Origin: Carcharhinus amblyrhynchos
Lineage: Eukaryota
Reading direction: 5' to 3'
Length of the DNA stretch: 64,000 nt
Assembly (NCBI GenBank): GCA_965287045.1
Contig: OZ336878.1
Coordinates: forward strand, 47,492,001 to 47,556,000
The translations under genes and the position numbers were made by a program. Within the stretch, counting starts at the first letter, position 1. Every line of letters starts with the position of its first letter. This document shows, piece after piece, positions 910 to 29,526 of this stretch. Below the pieces are notes generated by a model. The model saw only the letters and a list, made by a program, of their open reading frames with translations, had not been told where the DNA came from and made no database searches.

Positions 910-3900
910 ATTTTCTTTTATTTTAATACGTTTTATTGATTTTCAAAATGAAATAGAAACAAATAAACCAAGTACAATACAATACAATGGAATAGCCCCC
1001 TTCTCCCTAAGTAAACAAACCAAAAACTATGCAAAAGAGAAAAACTAAGAAGTTCAAAAATGGCTAGTCTACAGTAATCAATTATTTAGAAATAGAAACA
1101 AATAGCTGCCTTCTACAAAAATATTTCACAGCCGATCCTCTTATGGTAAACTTCATCTTTTCCAAATATAAAAAAGACTTCTAACCAGGATAGAGTAGAA
1201 GGTGGCTTAATAAATCTTCAGTTTAATAAAATCTGCCTGCAGGCGATCAATGAAGGGAATCAGTGACATCCATCTTAAGCTTAATGAAAGTGACCAGTTC
1301 AGATAAGCTTTCGAAGAACACATTTGCAAGTTAATATTTAGAGCTTTGGAGAGAGTATCAAAGAAGTATAACCAGAAGCCAGCCGGCCTTGAGCACGACC
1401 AGAACATTTAGGTATTGTCTGCAGGGGCAGATGAACAGCTGTTTTCTGCTTGAGTTGGGGAAGAAATTACTAATTCCAGCTTTGGTGAAGTGAATTTCTG
1501 TGCAAAACTTTCATATTTATATTCATAAGCTTAACTGAACGCAGGAGGATGTGGAGTTGAGCCTAAGAAGGGCCTCCTCCAACCATTGTCCATGAAGTCA
1601 AGCCCAAGCTCTGCTTTTCAATCATTTCTTACCTTATGGAGAGGAGAGGGGCCAGAGGACAGCATGAGACCAGGCAATCTTAAAATAGAACCTCTGCGAG
1701 TTTGAGGCAATAATAAAAATGTGTTGGAAGTAACGGAGGAATGGATGAACAGTGAAAACGAACAAAAATACGTATGTGTAAATAGTGTTAAAAACCAAAT
1801 TGGGGCAAATTAGCCACAAGCTCATTAAAACTGGCAAAGGCCCTATCTACAAACAGATTCATAAATTGTTCAAGTTCTCTTTCCCTCCATAAGGCAAACC
1901 CAAGTCAAGCTTGGAGGCAAAAATAAGTGGTTATTGCAAATAGCATCCAGCAATAAAAAAGTAGAATGTTTAAAATGTGGACAAAATGGTTTCCATATTT
2001 TTAGGGTGGAAATCACAATGGGGCTTGATATGCATTTTGAGGGAAATATAGTGGGGCACAAACTAATCCAGGAAGAGAGGATGGGCAGCAGGAGAGCGTG
2101 CTTCAATAAGCATCCAACTTATAATTGGATCACAACACTATATTCAAATCTTCTGATTATTGGCTGCCCAATAGGTTAGGTAGAACTAGTTTACCAACAT
2201 ATCTCCCCCTCTGAGGTATCACTCTACAGCCTCTAGAGGTCCTGTCTGCCCAGATAAATGTTGATATCAGCTTGTTTACTGTGACAAAAAATGATTTTGG
2301 CTAAAAAAAAGAGGACATTAAAAAAGAATCAAGAATGGCCAGAATGTTCATTTTTATGGGTTGAACTCTGCCAGTTAAAGAAAGAGGCACACTATCCCAG
2401 CGCTGTAAATCCACCTTCACTTTGGTGACCAGCTTCAAAAAGTTTGTTTGATGGAAAGTCGTAAAAGACCCTGTTATGTTCTCACCTAAGTCATGAAACG
2501 TGGCACAAGATATATGAAATGGCAAAACTTCTAGGGAATTAGTGTGGCAATAGGGTTGACTGGAAAACATTCACTTTTGCTGATATTCAATTTATAGCCA
2601 GAGAATGAGTTAAAGGTGTTAAGAATATTCATTATGTCTTCAACACTGGCAATAAGATTAATAAGATCTAATGGGTGGTTGTCAGTATAAAAGGGCACAC
2701 TTTGCTCCACATAGGCTCAATGGATACCTTTTAGCAGCATTGACAACTTTAAGATTATGATCAATGGTTCTATCACCAGGGCAAAGAGAAGTGCAGGCAG
2801 CCTTGGCTTGTCCTTCTGAATAGAAGGAAATACTTCAAGTATAGAGAGTGTGTTTGCAAGCTTACAGTAGGTGAGGTATAGAGAAGACAAATCCATGAAG
2901 TAAATTTTGAACTAAGCCCAAACTTACCCAAAATTCTAAACAGATATTCCCACTCCAACTGGTCAAAGATCTTCTCTGCGTCTAAGGAGATCTTCAAGAT
3001 CTGCCAAAGCAGTTGGGAAAGTGTATTGATGAGAAGACGGTGTAGATTTATAAACAGTTGGCACCCCTTCACAAAACCAATTAGGTCCTCTGATATTACA
3101 CTACAAAGAAAAGGCTCCAATTGGCCTTTAGCCAACAGCTTGACTTCTGCATGTAACAGTGTTGCACATGAGACAAATAGATGAAGTCACTTATGACTGT
3201 TGGAGAAAACACCAAGGGTCAACACAACCCATTTTTAGTTATAAAGGTAGAGAGAGCTGGAAGTCTTTGGTCTTGAATGGTCCAGCCTTGGACGCAAGGC
3301 ACAAATTAGGTCCCCAAATTAGGTCGTGTGTGTTAAGGTTGGAATGGGGGATAGAAGCAACCTAATAAATTTTATATCATCCAGTTAGGGGCATAGACGT
3401 TTATCAACACTAAAGGGGGCTGAAAAAATGTGCTACTAAGTATTGTATAATTATTGGGCATATTAGAATAACTTTGTTACCAGAGAGCTAAAATTGGTTT
3501 TATGTGTTAGCAAATAGGAATATATCGGCATGATGAAAAACGTTAGGGAAACACCCGTTGGAAGAAACACCATATGTGTTTTTCCTGCATTGCTCAACTG
3601 GAAGTCCAAAGTTGCATTTTCAATGGTAACAATTCTGTCCCTCGCTTCATCAAGCCTTTTGCCAGTATTCTACAGTTCTATTGTCTGAGCACTGATACTT
3701 TGTACTAATAGACTGAGTTTCTCATCAATGACCTTAATAATATTAGCAGTCATCAGTTGTAGTGCTGCTGTGAGTATCGGATTGAGAATCTATTCAGCCA
3801 CGAGGTACCACGTTGAGGAGTTGGCTCCATACCAGTTACTCCTGATTGGTCTCTTTTGTCAATTATTTTCTTAATTTTTTTGGCACTTTGTCACCAACAT

Positions 3901-6689: not shown

Positions 6690-7990
6690 GTCAGGACAAA
6701 CCTAGGCATGGAAACCTCTTGTTGAATACTATGTAGTGTCCCCCCCGAGCTGATAAACCAGCACTCTTCCATTGAACACAACTTGGAGGAAGCAATGAGG
6801 CTGGCAAGAATGCAGAATGTATTCTGGGTGGTGGACATCAATGTCCATCATCTAGAGTTGCTTGGTAGTACCACCACTGACCAAGTTTGCCATGTCCTAA
6901 AGGGCATACTTGCCAGACTGGGACTGTGGCAGATGGTAAGTGAACAAACAAGAGGAGAAAAGAAATACACTTGGCCTCATTCTCACAACCTGCCTGCTGC
7001 AGATGCATCTATCCATGACAGAATTGGTAGAAATGACCATTGCATGGTGCTTGTGGAGGCAAAGTCCTGTCTTCACATTGAGGAAACCTTCCATTGAGTT
7101 TTGTTGCACTACCACCATGCTAAATGGGATAGATTTTGAATAGACCTAGCAACTCAAGACTAAGCATCCATGAGGGACTGTAGGCCATCAACAGCAGCAG
7201 AATTGTACTCAACCACAATCTGCAATCTCATTGCCCAGCTTATCCCCCACTCCACCACTATCACCAAGCCAGGAGATCAACCTTGGTTCAATGAAAAGTG
7301 TAGGAGGGCATGCCAGGAACAACACCAGGCATACATAAAAGTGAGGTGTCAACCTGGTGAAGCTACAACACAAGACTACTTGTATACCAAACAGCATAAG
7401 AAGCAAGTGATAGAGCTAAAAGCTTCCACAACCAATGGATCAGATCTAAGCTCTGCAGTCCTGACGCAACCAGTACAAATGGTGATGGATAATTAAACAA
7501 CTCACTGGAGAAGGAGGCTCCCCAAATACCCCCATCCTCAATGATGTAGGAGTCCAGAAATCAGTGCAAAAGATGAGCTGAAGAATTCAAACAATCAAAG
7601 TACCGATAGGATGATCCATCTCAGTTTCCCTCAGAAGTCCCCATCATCACAAATGCCAGTCTTGAATCAATTCAATTCACTCCACATGATGCTGCAAAGA
7701 CTATAGGACCTAACAATATCCTGTTGCTACTATTGTGCTCCAGGACTTGCCATACCCATAGCCAAGATGTTCCAGTATAACTACCATTATCCCTTGACAT
7801 GTGATGGAATAATCTCCATTTGCCAAGATGAATGCTTCTCCAACAACACTCAAGGAGCTCAACACTATCTAGAATAAAACAGCATGCTTGATTGTCATCC
7901 CCTCTACAAACATTCACCCCCTCCACCATCGACCCATAGCACCAGTTTGTACCATCTACAAGGCGCACTACAGAAACTCAGACAAATTCA
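6690..7990 (+). mobile_element. CR1/L2-type LINE fragment (APE endonuclease and linker, with deletions)
   Basis: WVVDINVHH, IGRNDHCMVLVE, KPGDQPWFNEKCRRACQEQHQAY; its 3' part resembles the element at 40.9-41.66 kb. Confidence 0.8.
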
Positions 7991-11480: not shown

Positions 11481-11964
11481 ACGGTTAACTGCAGCCATTA
11501 GTTTTGTAGGAGGGTTTTCTTTATTTTTAAATGTATACACCATCCTCGACTTGTTTCTCACAACATGAAATCAGTGGGAGATTGTCATCATCCCAGTCAC
11601 AATGAAGGCTAGTCTGGGGAGATGGCTGGCATTCCCATTGGGCATTACCTTTTTATTCCATTATTATTGAGTAGGAGGTGACAAAGACAAAAGAGAGTAG
11701 CGCAAGAGAGAGTTTGGCAGCATTTAAGGCTCTAAGCTCAGTGCCTTCAGAAGAAGCAAGAAAAAATTGAATTAAAGAAAACGTATCTCAGAGTTGAGAG
11801 AGGCAGAATTTGTTAACCTTTATTCCCATAAGTTTTACCAGTACTTGATATTTTTAATTTCCTCTGTCTCTTTTGCCCTTTGACGTTCTACTTTAATTGG
11901 GATGTTTTTATTGTCTTCTGCTATGAAGGCAGATAAAAATATTTGTTCAAAGTCTCAGCCATTT

Positions 11965-12835
11965 AGAGTCATAGAGTCATAGAGGTTTACATCATGGAAA
12001 CAGGCCCTTCGGCCCAACTTGTCCATGCTGCCCAATTTTTATTTAAACCCCTAAGCTAATGGGCGGCACGGTAGCACAGTGGTCAGCACTGCTACCCCAC
12101 AGCTCCAGGGTCCCAGGTTCAACTCCCAGCTCGGGCCACTGTCCGTGTGGAGCCCGCACACCCCTCTCGAGTCTACGTGGGTTTCCCCCGGGCTCCCCAG
12201 CCTCCTCCCACAGCCCAAAGGTGCGCGGGCCAGGCCGACCGGCCACGCTAAGAAATTGCCCCCTGGTGTCCAGGGATGCATAGGTTAGAGGGATTAGTGG
12301 GTATAATATGTCGGGATATGGGGGTAGGGCCTGGGGGGGGATTGTGTTCGATGCAGACTCCATGGGCCGAAGGGCCTGCATTGTGGGATTCTATTCTATT
12401 CTAACCCCAATTGCCCGCATTTGGCCCATATCCTTCTATACCCATCGCTCCCATGTAACTATATAAATGCTTTTTAAAAGACAAAATTGTACCTGCCTCT
12501 ATACTACCTCTGGTACTTTGTTCCAGACACTCAACACCCAGTGTGAAAAAATTGCCCCTCTGGACACTTTTGTATCTCTCCCCTCTCACCTTAAACCTAT
12601 GCCCTCTAGTTTTAGACTCCCCTACCTTTGGGAAAACATATTGCCTATCCAGCTGATCTGTGCCCTTCATTATTTTATAGACCTCTATAAGATCAACCCT
12701 CAACCTCCTATACTCCAGAGAAAAAAGTCCTAGTCTATCCAGCCTCTCCTTATAACTCAAACCACCAAGTCTTGGTAGCATCCTAGTAAATCTTTTCTGC
12801 ACTCTTTCTAGTTTAATAATATCCTTTCTATAATA
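11965..12835 (-). mobile_element. CR1 LINE 3' end, interrupted by a SINE
   Basis: YYRKDIIKLERVQKRFTRMLP..LGLFSLEYRRLRVDLIEVYKIMKG; (CTATGACT)n tail near 11965. Confidence 0.92.
12061..12404 (+). mobile_element. HE1-like V-SINE with T>C hypermutation, nested antisense in the CR1 3' end
   Basis: Full tRNA head GGGCGGCACGGTAGCACAGTGG, body and (ATTCT)n tail; CR1 sequence continues on both sides. Confidence 0.9.
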
Positions 12836-14435
12836 TCTGTGGGAGAAACAGTTACTCTTTACATATCTTCCAGTTACCCGATCATCAGAGAGAAGTACCC
12901 CCAAGATGTGTTTTTGGATCTTCTTTGAGTCCCATTATTATTAATTCCCCAATCTCATCCACTTAGGGACCAACGTTTACTTTAGCCCTCTCTTCATTTT
13001 CAATGTACTTGTAGAAGCATCTGTTCGCATATTTTTGCTAATTTATTCTCACATTCTTGTTCATCCTTTGCAGGTTTCTAAAATTTCCCCAATATTTTGG
13101 TCTATCTCAAATCTTAGCAGTTCTGTATTTTTTTTTCGATTTGACAACATCCTGTACTGTGTTAGTCAGCCATGGATTATTCATCTTTCCTTCTCAATTG
13201 AATATATTGCATTGTCACTCCTACTGCTGTTTAGTCTTACTGCCATTTAAAGAAAGATTTGCCATTATACAGTGCCTCCCATGAGTTCAGGTTTTCCTAA
13301 AGCATTTCGCAGCAAATGAAGTGCCCTGGTGGATGCCTGCAGAGGGACCAGGAGAGGGGCCTGTCGAAGTACACTGCTTTGCCGAGCTGGAGCTGCCTTG
13401 CTGCCTGAATCTTGGAGCCAAGCTGTGCCCGACATTCACCACTACACCATTCCCAGGGGCATTCGACAGCTCTTCATCGGCATTGACGCTAGGAGCCCCC
13501 GGCCAGGTATCTGGACCGTAACCTGGGCTTGAGCACAATGCTGGTGTTCCTCATTCCAGATCCATCTAGGCAACCTCCAGCATCTCCTGGATCAGGAGCT
13601 GTAGTTTGTGGCTAGCCAGTGACAAAATCAAGCACAATACAGCCAGTAAACTCTACTCCTGATGGCTGATCTAAGTACAAAGTGTGTTGTTATTGCCCAG
13701 TGTGTTGTTAGAGCTGGTGGGGGCAGATAGGAATTTGAAATAACAGAGAAACAAGCAAATACATTTACAAACACAACAGAGACACACACATAAATTTAAA
13801 ACTAACGGAGATGCAGAAAAATACATTGATGACAAACAGAGTTGCACATAATGACACTTATATCTGATCAATAGCACACAAATAAAACCATTTATAAACA
13901 GTATACACAAATAAAATCAAATAATTATAAACCAATAGATAGAGATATGCAAATACTTTTATCAGCAGCATACAGATATAACTAATGCATAAACTGGGAA
14001 ATTAATAATAATGGGAGTTATGCACAAAGGCACTAAAGTTAATTGTTACAATTAATCTAAGAGTAAGAGAGATACATTAATTGAGCAACAGATTGATACA
14101 TATAAAAGCATTAATAAATCATGCACAAAGCATATATTAATTATGCACACATTTCATAAGTTGAAATGGATACATGTACACAACAACACAATCACAACAT
14201 TGTTAACTACACATTATATGAAACTTGCATACTCCTACATGAACATCAACAACACATAGTCACCGTTTAAAATAAGCATGACAATTTTACATTCACATGA
14301 TTATTGATTTAATCAAGAACGTAGAGGACATAGGGCTGCAAAACAGAAGCACAGAGTAATTTATAAATGGTGAGAGATTAGGAAGTGTTGATGAGAGAGA
14401 TCTGCAGGGTCCTCCTTGGAAGTTAGAACATTTTT

Positions 14436-26894: not shown

Positions 26895-27645
26895 CAGTTG
26901 TCCAGCAGTGATGTATGCTATGTTGCCCATGATGCCCTTGGTGGACGTCCCCTGGGTGGCTGGGACCTGGAGGGCCCCAGCTGACTTGCGAATGGCACTG
27001 TTTCGGTGCCACTCTTTTCATCTCACTGTTCTAGATGCCCCAGTGAGAGGAAGGGAGGAATCAGAAGGTCTTGGGACATCCGGGATCTCTGGGTGGAAGA
27101 CCCCGGCATGGACTCAAGCGTTCCGTCCTCTCTTGGGGTCAGTGGCTCGAGGACACTTCACAGGATGACAGCGTAGCTTGACTGATCTCCAGAAGCTCCA
27201 GCGTCACCTGGCTCTGCCAGTCCTGGAGGCCTAAATGCGTCTGCCCCATGATGTGTGATTCCTCAGCTCTCACCCTCTGAAACTGGGCCCAGCTCTGGAT
27301 CCCCTCCTCTACAGTATTCTGTGAGTGAGCCAGGCGCTGGAGCACCTTAGCAGTGGCCCTCTGAGCCTGGGCTAAGTTGTCAAGGCTCACAGCCATGGCC
27401 TGCTGTGTCTCCAGAATGCCAGTGAAAGAACCTAGCCCTGGCCGGCAGTGTCTATTACATGCCTCCGATACCCGCGGCCATTGAACGGTGTGCCTTCTGG
27501 ATGCAAACACACTCCCCTGTGGTCCGTTGTGTCTCCAGGATGGCCTGGACCCTGTCACCCAAGAGTACGGACCCCTGAGCCAGACTTTCCACTGCGGACG
27601 CCACCTTTACAGTGTTGGCCTGGGTCTCATGCTGTGTCAGGGAGA
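26895..27645 (-). mobile_element. Probable Harbinger second-ORF relic (coiled-coil region)
   Basis: VASAVESLAQG, ILETQQAMAVSLDNLAQAQRATAKVLQRLA heptad-like repeats; family assignment from memory. Confidence 0.45.
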
Positions 27646-29526
27646 TTTGCCCTCCCAAAGATACACAAGGCAAACACACCCGGCCATCCCATCATATCAG
27701 GCAATGGGACCCTGTGTGAGAACCTCTCCAGCTACGTCGATGGCATCCTGAAACCCATTATACAAGGAACCCCCAGCTTTTGTCGCGACACTATGGATTT
27801 CCTACAGAAACTCAGCACACATGGAGCAGTTGAACCAGGGACATTCCACGTCACAATGGATGCCTCGGCGCTCTACAGCAACATCCCCCATGATGATGGC
27901 ATTGCTGCAACTGTCTCAGTGCTTAACGCCGACAACTGCCAGTTTCCAGATGCAATTTTACAAATCATCTGCTTCATCCTGGATCACAATGTCTTCACCT
28001 TCAACAACCACTTCCTCATCCAGACACGTGGAACAGCCATGGGGACCAAATTCACACCTCAATATGCCAACATCTTCATGGACAGGCTCAAACAAGACCT
28101 CTTCACCGCACAGGACCTTCACCGATGCTATACACTAGATACATCGATGACATTTTCTTCCTTTGGACTCATGGTGAATAATCACTGAAACAACTGTATG
28201 ATGACATCAACAAGTTCCCCCACCATCAGACTCACCATGGACTACTCTCAGGAATCGGTTGCATTCTTGGACACACGCATCTCCATCAAGGACAATCACC
28301 TCAGCACTTCATTGTACCGCAAGCCCACGGATAACCTCACGATGCTCCACTTCTCCAGCTTCCACTGTAAACACGTTAAAGAAGCCATCCCCTACAGACA
28401 AGCCTTCCATATACACAGGATCTGCTCAGATGAGAAGGATCGCAACAGACACCTCCAGACGCTGAAAGATGCTCTCATAAGAACAGGATATGGTGCTCGG
28501 CTCATCGATCGACAGTTCTGACGCGCCACAGCGAAAATCCGCACCAACCTCCTCAGAAGACAAACACGGGACATGGTGGACAAAATACTCTTCGTTGTCC
28601 AGTATTTCCCCGGAGCGGAGAAGCTACAACATCTTCTCCGGAGTTTTCAATACATCATTGTTGAGAACGAATATCTCGCCAGGGCCGTCCCCATACCGCC
28701 ACTCCTTACCTTCAAACAACCACACAACCTCAAACAGACCATTGCTCGCAGCAAACTACCCAGCCTCCAGGAGAACAGTGACCACAACACCACACAACCC
28801 TGTCACAGCAACCTCTGCAAGACGTGCTGGATCATTGACATGGATGACATCATCTCACGTGAGGACACCATCCACCAGGTACACGGTGCATACACTTGCA
28901 ACTCGGCCAACGTTGTCTACCTGATACGCTGCAGGAAAGGATGTCCCGAAGCATGATACACTGGGGAGACCATGCAGACGCTACAACAATGGATGAATGA
29001 ACATTGCTTGACAATCACCAGGCAAGACTGTTCCCTTCCTGTTGGCGAACACTTCAGCGGTCATGGGCATTCAGTCTCTGATCTTCGGGTAAGCATTCTC
29101 CAAGGCGGCCTTCACAACACACGACAGCGCAGAGTCGCTGAGTAGAGACTGATAGCCAAATTCCGCACACATGAGGACGGCCTCAACCGGGATCTTGAGC
29201 TCACATCGCACTATCTATAACCCCCATGACTTGCCTGGGCTTGTAGAATCTCACTTACTGTCCTGTCTGGAGACAATACACATCTCGTTAACCTATGCTA
29301 ATGTTCTCTCCACTCACATTGTCTGCATCTTTAAGACTTGAATAGCAGGTTGGCTATAAAGACTTGCATTCTAATCAGTATTCTGTAAACTGTGTGTGAC
29401 TTTATAAGCCCTTCTCTGATCAGAACCTTCCACATAGCTGACTAAGGAAGACCGTTTCTGAAAGTTTATGGGATTACTATCAAATAAATTGGTTGGACTC
29501 AAACCTGGTGTTGTGAGACTTCTTAC
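27645..29526 (+). mobile_element. Penelope-like retroelement (RT + GIY-YIG endonuclease + pLTR), 5' truncated and frameshifted
   Basis: LPKIHK..PIISG, TMDASALYSNIPH, QTRGTAMGT, RYIDDIF, FLDTRI..YRKPTD, NVVYLIRCRKGC..YTGET. Confidence 0.95.

Follow-up and report, generated by a model that had tools for sequence, protein, structure and literature searches.

The 64-kb stretch of DNA analysed here, hereafter the window, lies on contig C9 of the 2.92-Gb genome of the shark Carcharhinus amblyrhynchos and contains a composite element in which a SINE is nested, in antisense, within the 3' end of a 5'-truncated LINE on the minus strand (Table 1). This arrangement, already described in an earlier note made from the letters of the window, agrees with our sequence comparisons and with the RVT_1 frame found on the minus strand of longer LINE relatives (two of three frames tested; single frames of L115 and L111 gave no match in Pfam). 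Because the longer relatives continue into this minus-strand reverse-transcriptase frame, the RNA strand of the element is the minus strand, and T>C on the plus strand means A>G in the RNA. The LINE may belong to the CR1 clade and be HER1-like; the last 47 nt of its tail are 77% like the SINE's own tail. The nested SINE, which had no match in Rfam, is presumably V-SINE/HE1-like by its central motif. With this common tail, the repeats of the window resemble those of sharks and rays. Broken reverse-transcriptase and endonuclease frames of LINEs are also seen at window positions 2776-3186, 6726-7094 and 27436-28185, and a Pfam scan of 105 of the 517 listed frames (51 in the window and 54 in the source region described below) gave mobile-element or sub-threshold matches only, with no host gene, and no host exon in the window.

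Table 1. Features of the retrocopy and its target site, in window positions
Feature	Position	Strand	Remarks
Whole retrocopy	11963..12920	-	~957-958 bp, ends +/- 1-2 nt; copied from G000:C29:34793836-34794796, 94.7% identity over 961 columns
LINE 3' tail (end of 3' UTR plus short tandem tail)	11964..12060	-	predicted priming end of reverse transcription; zero own substitutions
Nested SINE, antisense on RNA strand	12061..12400	+	same junctions occur in the source only
Putative hyper-edited tract	12084..12263	-	27 A>G on RNA strand (T>C on +); within predicted 191-nt stem, ~12074-12264
LINE body (end of ORF2 and 3' UTR)	12401..12835	-	5'-truncated at 12835; T changed to C: 0/130
Upstream flank of source carried along (5' transduction), 85 bp	12836..12920	-	no family match; run X4 has it with source alleles, continuing into other sequence
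Target site, left half of older LINE fragment	11840..11962	-	14/14 relatives examined continue into sequence resembling 12921 onward, or diverge
Target site, right half of older LINE fragment	12921..13100	-	

A source copy elsewhere and an empty insertion site

The top match to the composite is a copy on contig C29 that includes both LINE-SINE junctions as well as the 85 bp past the LINE. In two junction searches with 40 matches scored in each, these junctions were spanned by the window and C29 copies only, besides one match of 83% (L093, G000:C1:16981292-16981435). L093 is a third site where a SINE tail adjoins the LINE in the same order, possibly through an independent insertion at a similar site. 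The earlier note had proposed looking for another copy with the SINE at the same LINE position, edited or not; the C29 copy is such a copy, it is unedited, and it is the source of the window copy.

At C29 an older repeat motif, intact at four other loci, is interrupted by the LINE, and ATCT (4 nt) is present on both sides of the LINE. The 85-bp flank is the right half of this split motif, and the window copy holds that right half. The window unit in turn interrupts an older LINE; relatives of that LINE run across the site without a break, several of them matching both flanks in register. The window copy bears the hallmarks of a LINE retrocopy, namely a 3' end at the LINE tail, 5' truncation, source flank, and an empty site elsewhere, with a target-site duplication of at most 2 nt (TT); its ends are uncertain by 1-2 nt because TT is present at both junctions. 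Among four sequencing runs compared, three (X4, X5 and X6) have the empty site, their contigs joining 11962 directly to 12921, whereas contigs of X1 enter both junctions of a filled site. From the split motifs, the carried flank and the empty sites, it follows that the window copy is a young daughter whose template started upstream of the truncated LINE.

A 216-nt X1 contig spans 12074-12289 with one differing letter, although X1 may be the assembly's own sample. Since this contig carries the edited bases, they are not a polishing artefact; the earlier note had advised confirming the bases in raw reads. In other samples, the source is represented by one X4 contig that has its alleles. X5 and X6, both with the empty site, gave no contig over the source flank at 12873-12920 at 90% likeness, a stretch that may be diverged, absent or filtered there.

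A one-strand tract of substitutions in the window copy

Changes of the window copy were polarised against the source copy together with the family majority base. By this measure, the 47 substitutions between the window and C29 copies fall 34 to the window and 10 to C29, with 3 left open, and the 34 own substitutions of the window copy comprise 27 T>C and only 7 others over its whole length. One further T>C site at 12189, which is ambiguous beside an indel, stands outside the 27. In the span 12084-12263, T>C changes affect 27 of 52 T and A>G changes 1 of 24 A (Fisher p=2.8e-5), and G>A or C>T own changes are absent, so the APOBEC signature of clustered sense-strand G>A is not seen. Outside the tract no T has become C in the LINE tail (0/27), in the 3' part of the SINE (0/38), or in the LINE parts as a whole (0/157). 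The earlier note had seen by eye roughly 20-25 T>C changes in the first ~200 nt, few A>G changes, and a 3' third of the SINE that keeps its Ts; the actual number of T>C changes is slightly higher, and the rest of the description holds.

When scored against its 15 nearest SINE relatives, the window copy has 25/54 T>C and 1/27 A>G. In contrast, 173 untargeted SINE copies have a mean of 1.9 and a maximum of 8 T>C, and at this background rate 25/54 has a p of about 1e-21. The best 40 matches to 12061-12270 consist of the window SINE itself and 39 others at 80-83%, the best other (83%) being the unedited source; in an alignment to 29 of these matches, a dense run of T>C stands out in the first 200 nt of the window SINE. 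C is found at the 27 sites in at most 4 of ~60 copies, except at two sites with 9/59 and 10/58. We considered alleles shared by a multi-copy subfamily, which the earlier note had named as a possible refutation, and rejected them, as the best 40 matches hold no second copy with the C alleles. CpG decay in the source, which could mimic T>C, was likewise rejected; there were 4 such sites, and they were taken out using the family majority base.

The earlier note had judged the match to ADAR sequence context to be partial, and for the window copy alone this is so: adenosines with a 5' G are edited at 6/17 versus 21/35 at other 5' neighbours (p=0.14, not significant alone). A 3'-G preference is not apparent here, with 6/15 edited, and in the second pair described below the corresponding count is 11/19.

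Predicted duplex with an inverted SINE at the source

Because the read-through transcript would have begun upstream of the 5'-truncated LINE, an inverted partner SINE would be part of the same RNA. The nearest inverted SINE at the source (C29:34795329-34795515) lies ~1 kb upstream and matches SINE nt 14-204 at 83%. All 27 changes fall within the 191-nt stem predicted from this match, starting at SINE nt 24, with the last edit at the end of the stem. Inside the stem, 27/54 adenosines are changed, versus 0/39 in the SINE outside it (p=1.3e-8) and 0/196 outside overall. Sorted by predicted pairing, adenosines opposite C are changed at 4/5 and those in A-U pairs at 23/47.

The duplex energy of the source arm is predicted to be -300 kcal/mol with the nearest partner and -226 kcal/mol with the next. 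We also considered whether the window copy was edited where it stands, by pairing with adjacent SINEs, and rejected this, since the two inverted SINEs beside the window copy are only 66-71% alike and are predicted to form weaker duplexes (-206 and -201 kcal/mol). Two observations speak against the stem with the nearest partner: SINE nt 281-342 show no edits although they, too, are ~75% like the partner and pair in part in the fold, and the second partner is favoured in a 4.7-kb fold. The partner arm itself is absent from the copy, reverse transcription having ended ~400 nt before it.

The 40 kb surrounding the source showed neither a host gene nor a promoter, Pfam giving only mobile-element or sub-threshold matches among the frames scanned. 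About 16 kb upstream of the source is a minus-strand esterase frame (Lipase_GDSL_2, L124:6784-7095), a kind of frame typical of LINE ORF1, and this region is a possible origin of read-through transcription. Downstream of the source, L121:5200-8400 and L122:3750-3900 (G000:C29:34779264-34787899) are LTR-element/ERV-like with integrase frames (rve, MLVIN_C), and this stretch has a SINE 3' fragment on either side, the two fragments being near-identical and separated by 8.5 kb.

Further source-daughter pairs in the same genome

A motif with three adjacent T>C changes was found at 22 loci and the sense A>G motif at 6 loci. Five of the 22 (the window, L154, L156, L149 and L151) scored at least 14 T>C and are clearly hypermutated, as is one of the A>G-motif loci, which scored 17; two others of that group scored 7. 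The remaining motif loci resemble ordinary diverged copies. Four further hypermutated SINEs were tested for a source, and each has one unedited source at 86-97% identity, so that similar copies, for which the earlier note had suggested scanning, do exist in this genome. The source of L156 was found by a query without a young LINE. L151 (G000:C11:19637304) is a further candidate, with 14/51 T>C and a head-to-head inverted SINE ~90 bp away, and L179 and L180 are weak sense candidates with 7/28 and 7/27 A>G.

Pair 2 (C13:56592870-56594078, from C23) is 1209 bp long, and A>G makes up 34/46 of its substitutions. Its SINE is cut off at the 5' end of the copy, and inverted SINEs (91% and 85%) are 7-8 kb away. 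The copy extends ~110 bp beyond the LINE tail and thus has both 5' and 3' flank; beyond the SINE, a small inverted repeat (L020:1707-1780, G000:C13) carries two A>G, as if a short local hairpin had been edited. Pair 3 (C3:68029980-68030866, from C1) has its SINE in sense and ends at the tail of another SINE. A>G accounts for 54/96 of its substitutions, 53 of them in the first 490 nt; 21/54 edits are within the main predicted partner stems and 33/54 outside those detected within 15 kb. An 8-nt deletion in the SINE tail, present in the window and C29 copies near window position 12377, is also found at the same place in the pair-3 daughter (L175), apparently independently.

In pair 4 (C21:33798282-33798774, from C29:1.03 Mb) A>G makes up 22/24 substitutions, and 21/22 edits are inside a predicted stem with a partner 750 bp away. 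The copy (L188) is a chimera of edited host RNA and a young LINE, with the edited piece joined to the LINE's 5' side, likely through a template switch; this LINE has no counterpart in the source and is 98-99% identical to at least 39 other copies. Pair 5 (C7:55874368-55877125, from C7:91.1 Mb) is a 2.8-kb copy ending at a LINE tail. Its A>G changes (24/54 substitutions) include 20 in the first 120 nt, and 20/24 are within the predicted stem of the nearest partner.

In all five pairs the strand with A>G either has a LINE or SINE tail at its end or is joined to one (chance 1 in 32), the SINE being in sense on that strand in one pair and in antisense in four. Inverted SINEs lie within 1-8 kb of every source. 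Pooled over the five pairs, edited adenosines by 5' neighbour number 25/46 after U, 51/79 after A, 48/92 after C, and 27/89 after G. The 5' G is disfavoured in 5/5 pairs, with 27/89 versus 124/217 in the pool (p=2.8e-5, or 2e-4 without 15 motif-forced sites), where the sites are not independent because they are partly homologous among the pairs. The 5' end of the copy lies inside or within ~20 nt of the edited SINE in three of five pairs (2, 3 and 5; L128, L195 and L209); reverse transcription may stall at the duplex, or inosine-rich RNA may be cut there. The frequency of such pairs is not an unbiased estimate, because 4/5 were found through a motif or query derived from the edited pattern. 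Since a copy can match a motif only if it has three particular edits with their neighbours unaltered, tens of such copies or more are likely to exist, as a rough inference rather than a count.

Discussion

In this study, we found that a stretch of shark DNA is a retrotransposed copy of a locus on C29, and we are highly confident that ADAR, acting on a predicted RNA hairpin ahead of reverse transcription, produced its clustered A-to-G changes. A transcript of the minus strand of C29 would have read through the inverted SINE, ~400 nt of host DNA, and then the truncated LINE in which the second SINE is nested. The two SINEs would then pair over ~190 nt, and ADAR would deaminate about half of the adenosines in the nested-SINE arm. 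A LINE reverse transcriptase acting in trans may have primed on the LINE 3' tail, reading inosine as G and stopping 85 nt beyond the LINE, before the partner arm was reached, and the cDNA presumably integrated within the older LINE in a germline cell. The earlier note had proposed that a minus-strand LINE+SINE RNA was edited over its SINE part and then retrotransposed; editing followed by retrotransposition is supported, but the template appears to have been a read-through transcript and not plain LINE RNA. The window copy itself is probably neutral.

The alternative nearest to this proposal, which we regard as unlikely, keeps ADAR editing and retrotransposition and places the duplex in trans, between the antisense SINE arm and a free sense SINE RNA. 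Several SINE subfamilies here have only the first ~205 nt in common, so such a partner would give the same boundary, and pair 3 has edits without a detected cis partner. Nevertheless, a close cis partner with a matching boundary is present at C29, inverted SINEs accompany every source, and adenosines opposite C in the nearest cis partner are edited at 4/5, albeit a small number, all of which favours pairing within one RNA.

It is far less probable that adenine was deaminated in DNA during or after insertion, either by a single-strand DNA deaminase or by ADAR targeting the DNA strand in an RNA:cDNA hybrid or R-loop. One-strand clusters are expected from such a process too, and ADAR action on transcribed DNA has been proposed (PMC10209271). 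However, if the cDNA strand were deaminated, the RNA strand would show T>C, the opposite of what is seen in 5/5 pairs, and this polarity largely refutes the idea; deamination of DNA also has no reason to end at the edges of a stem and spare 700 bp of LINE. The link of editing to A>G substitutions in DNA is a matter of debate (PMC10209271).

Equally improbable is a cluster made by error-prone synthesis, whether by the reverse transcriptase or polymerase eta, or by GC-biased gene conversion. G runs have been gained beside the edited tracts in two copies, and the most edited context, A after A, resembles the WA motif of polymerase eta. But A after C is edited as often as A after U, transversions are almost absent from the tract, and biased gene conversion should yield equal numbers of T>C and A>G; the test for strand symmetry suggested by the earlier note instead gave 27 to 1. 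Least credible of all is that assembly or sequencing introduced these alleles, or that they mark a rare SINE subfamily, since, even though the sole run with a filled site may be the assembly's own sample, the X1 contig has the same bases but for 1 letter in 216, no second copy with the alleles is among the best 40 matches, and the five edited copies each show a different set of changes and come from different sources.

Editing of a hairpin RNA followed by LINE-mediated copying, the reading that we prefer, has an experimental precedent in human L1-made pseudogene insertions in cultured cells, where 3/235 carry clustered T>C confined to inverted Alus (PMC11702581, bioRxiv 2024). As in the shark copy, the clusters in that system are confined to inverted SINEs of the template RNA and are fixed in DNA by a LINE. 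Unlike the L1 insertions, which are induced, somatic and derived from 3' UTRs of poly(A) mRNA, the shark copy is natural and inherited, and would derive from non-coding read-through RNA through a LINE with a short tandem tail; furthermore, only one duplex arm was copied here, and the unedited source is retained in the genome. L1 RNA itself is reported not to be edited by ADAR1 (PMC5224506), and the unedited LINE parts of the window copy are in keeping with this.

The established genomic analogue is the 'DNA editing' that APOBEC enzymes have left in LTR retrotransposons of vertebrates (PMC4866542, PMC2873906), which also leaves strand-biased clusters of transitions relative to a source or consensus. 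In that case, however, the change is G>A through deamination of cytosine in cDNA and is independent of RNA duplexes, and the screens in these papers select for G-to-A and against A-to-G; the word 'ADAR' is absent from the main text of PMC4866542. ADAR hyper-editing of inverted SINE pairs in transcriptomes likewise yields dense A>G in duplexes of repeats lying within a few kb, with 5' G depleted (PMC5625713). That study reports abundant hyper-editing of elephant shark RNA, depletion of upstream G across animals, and a 3'-G preference that varies among animals, but the editing there is known in RNA only, whereas the changes of the shark copy stand in DNA. With respect to the elements, the HE1 V-SINE and HER1 LINE of sharks and rays are tabulated as a pair in PMC3747384, and LINEs of the stringent type are said to require the template's 3' end; like this pair, the window SINE and LINE have a common 3' tail, the family names applied here being provisional. 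According to a 2016 review (PMC4982230), it had not been determined what part ADAR editing plays in the evolution of SINEs. Our own literature search, covering titles and the openings of abstracts, gave no natural germline case with its source, the L1-made insertions in cultured cells being the nearest. Hypermutation of the A-to-G type has reportedly also been seen in avian retroviral proviruses, through reverse transcription of ADAR-edited RNA into DNA. Those proviruses belong to an exogenous virus in culture, whereas the shark copy would stem from host read-through RNA inherited via the germline.

In summary, RNA editing normally vanishes with the RNA, and here it appears as an inherited DNA change for which the source, the partner arm and the empty site are all available. 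Copies of this kind can mimic RNA editing when reads mis-map, or pass for fast-evolving sequence. Source-daughter pairs make the entry of edited RNA into the germline countable, and they could show which transcripts of germ cells are double-stranded and edited, along with the preferences of ADAR on single molecules. We consider it likely, though with less confidence than for the window copy itself, that shark genomes contain inherited retrocopies of non-coding read-through RNAs hyper-edited by ADAR, in numbers between tens and hundreds, and that their unedited sources are still present. If so, these copies would form a record of germline A-to-I editing that is dated and resolved to single molecules, LINEs that recognise a tail would routinely mobilise nuclear read-through RNA, and ADAR would directly give rise to heritable clusters of mutations in a vertebrate.
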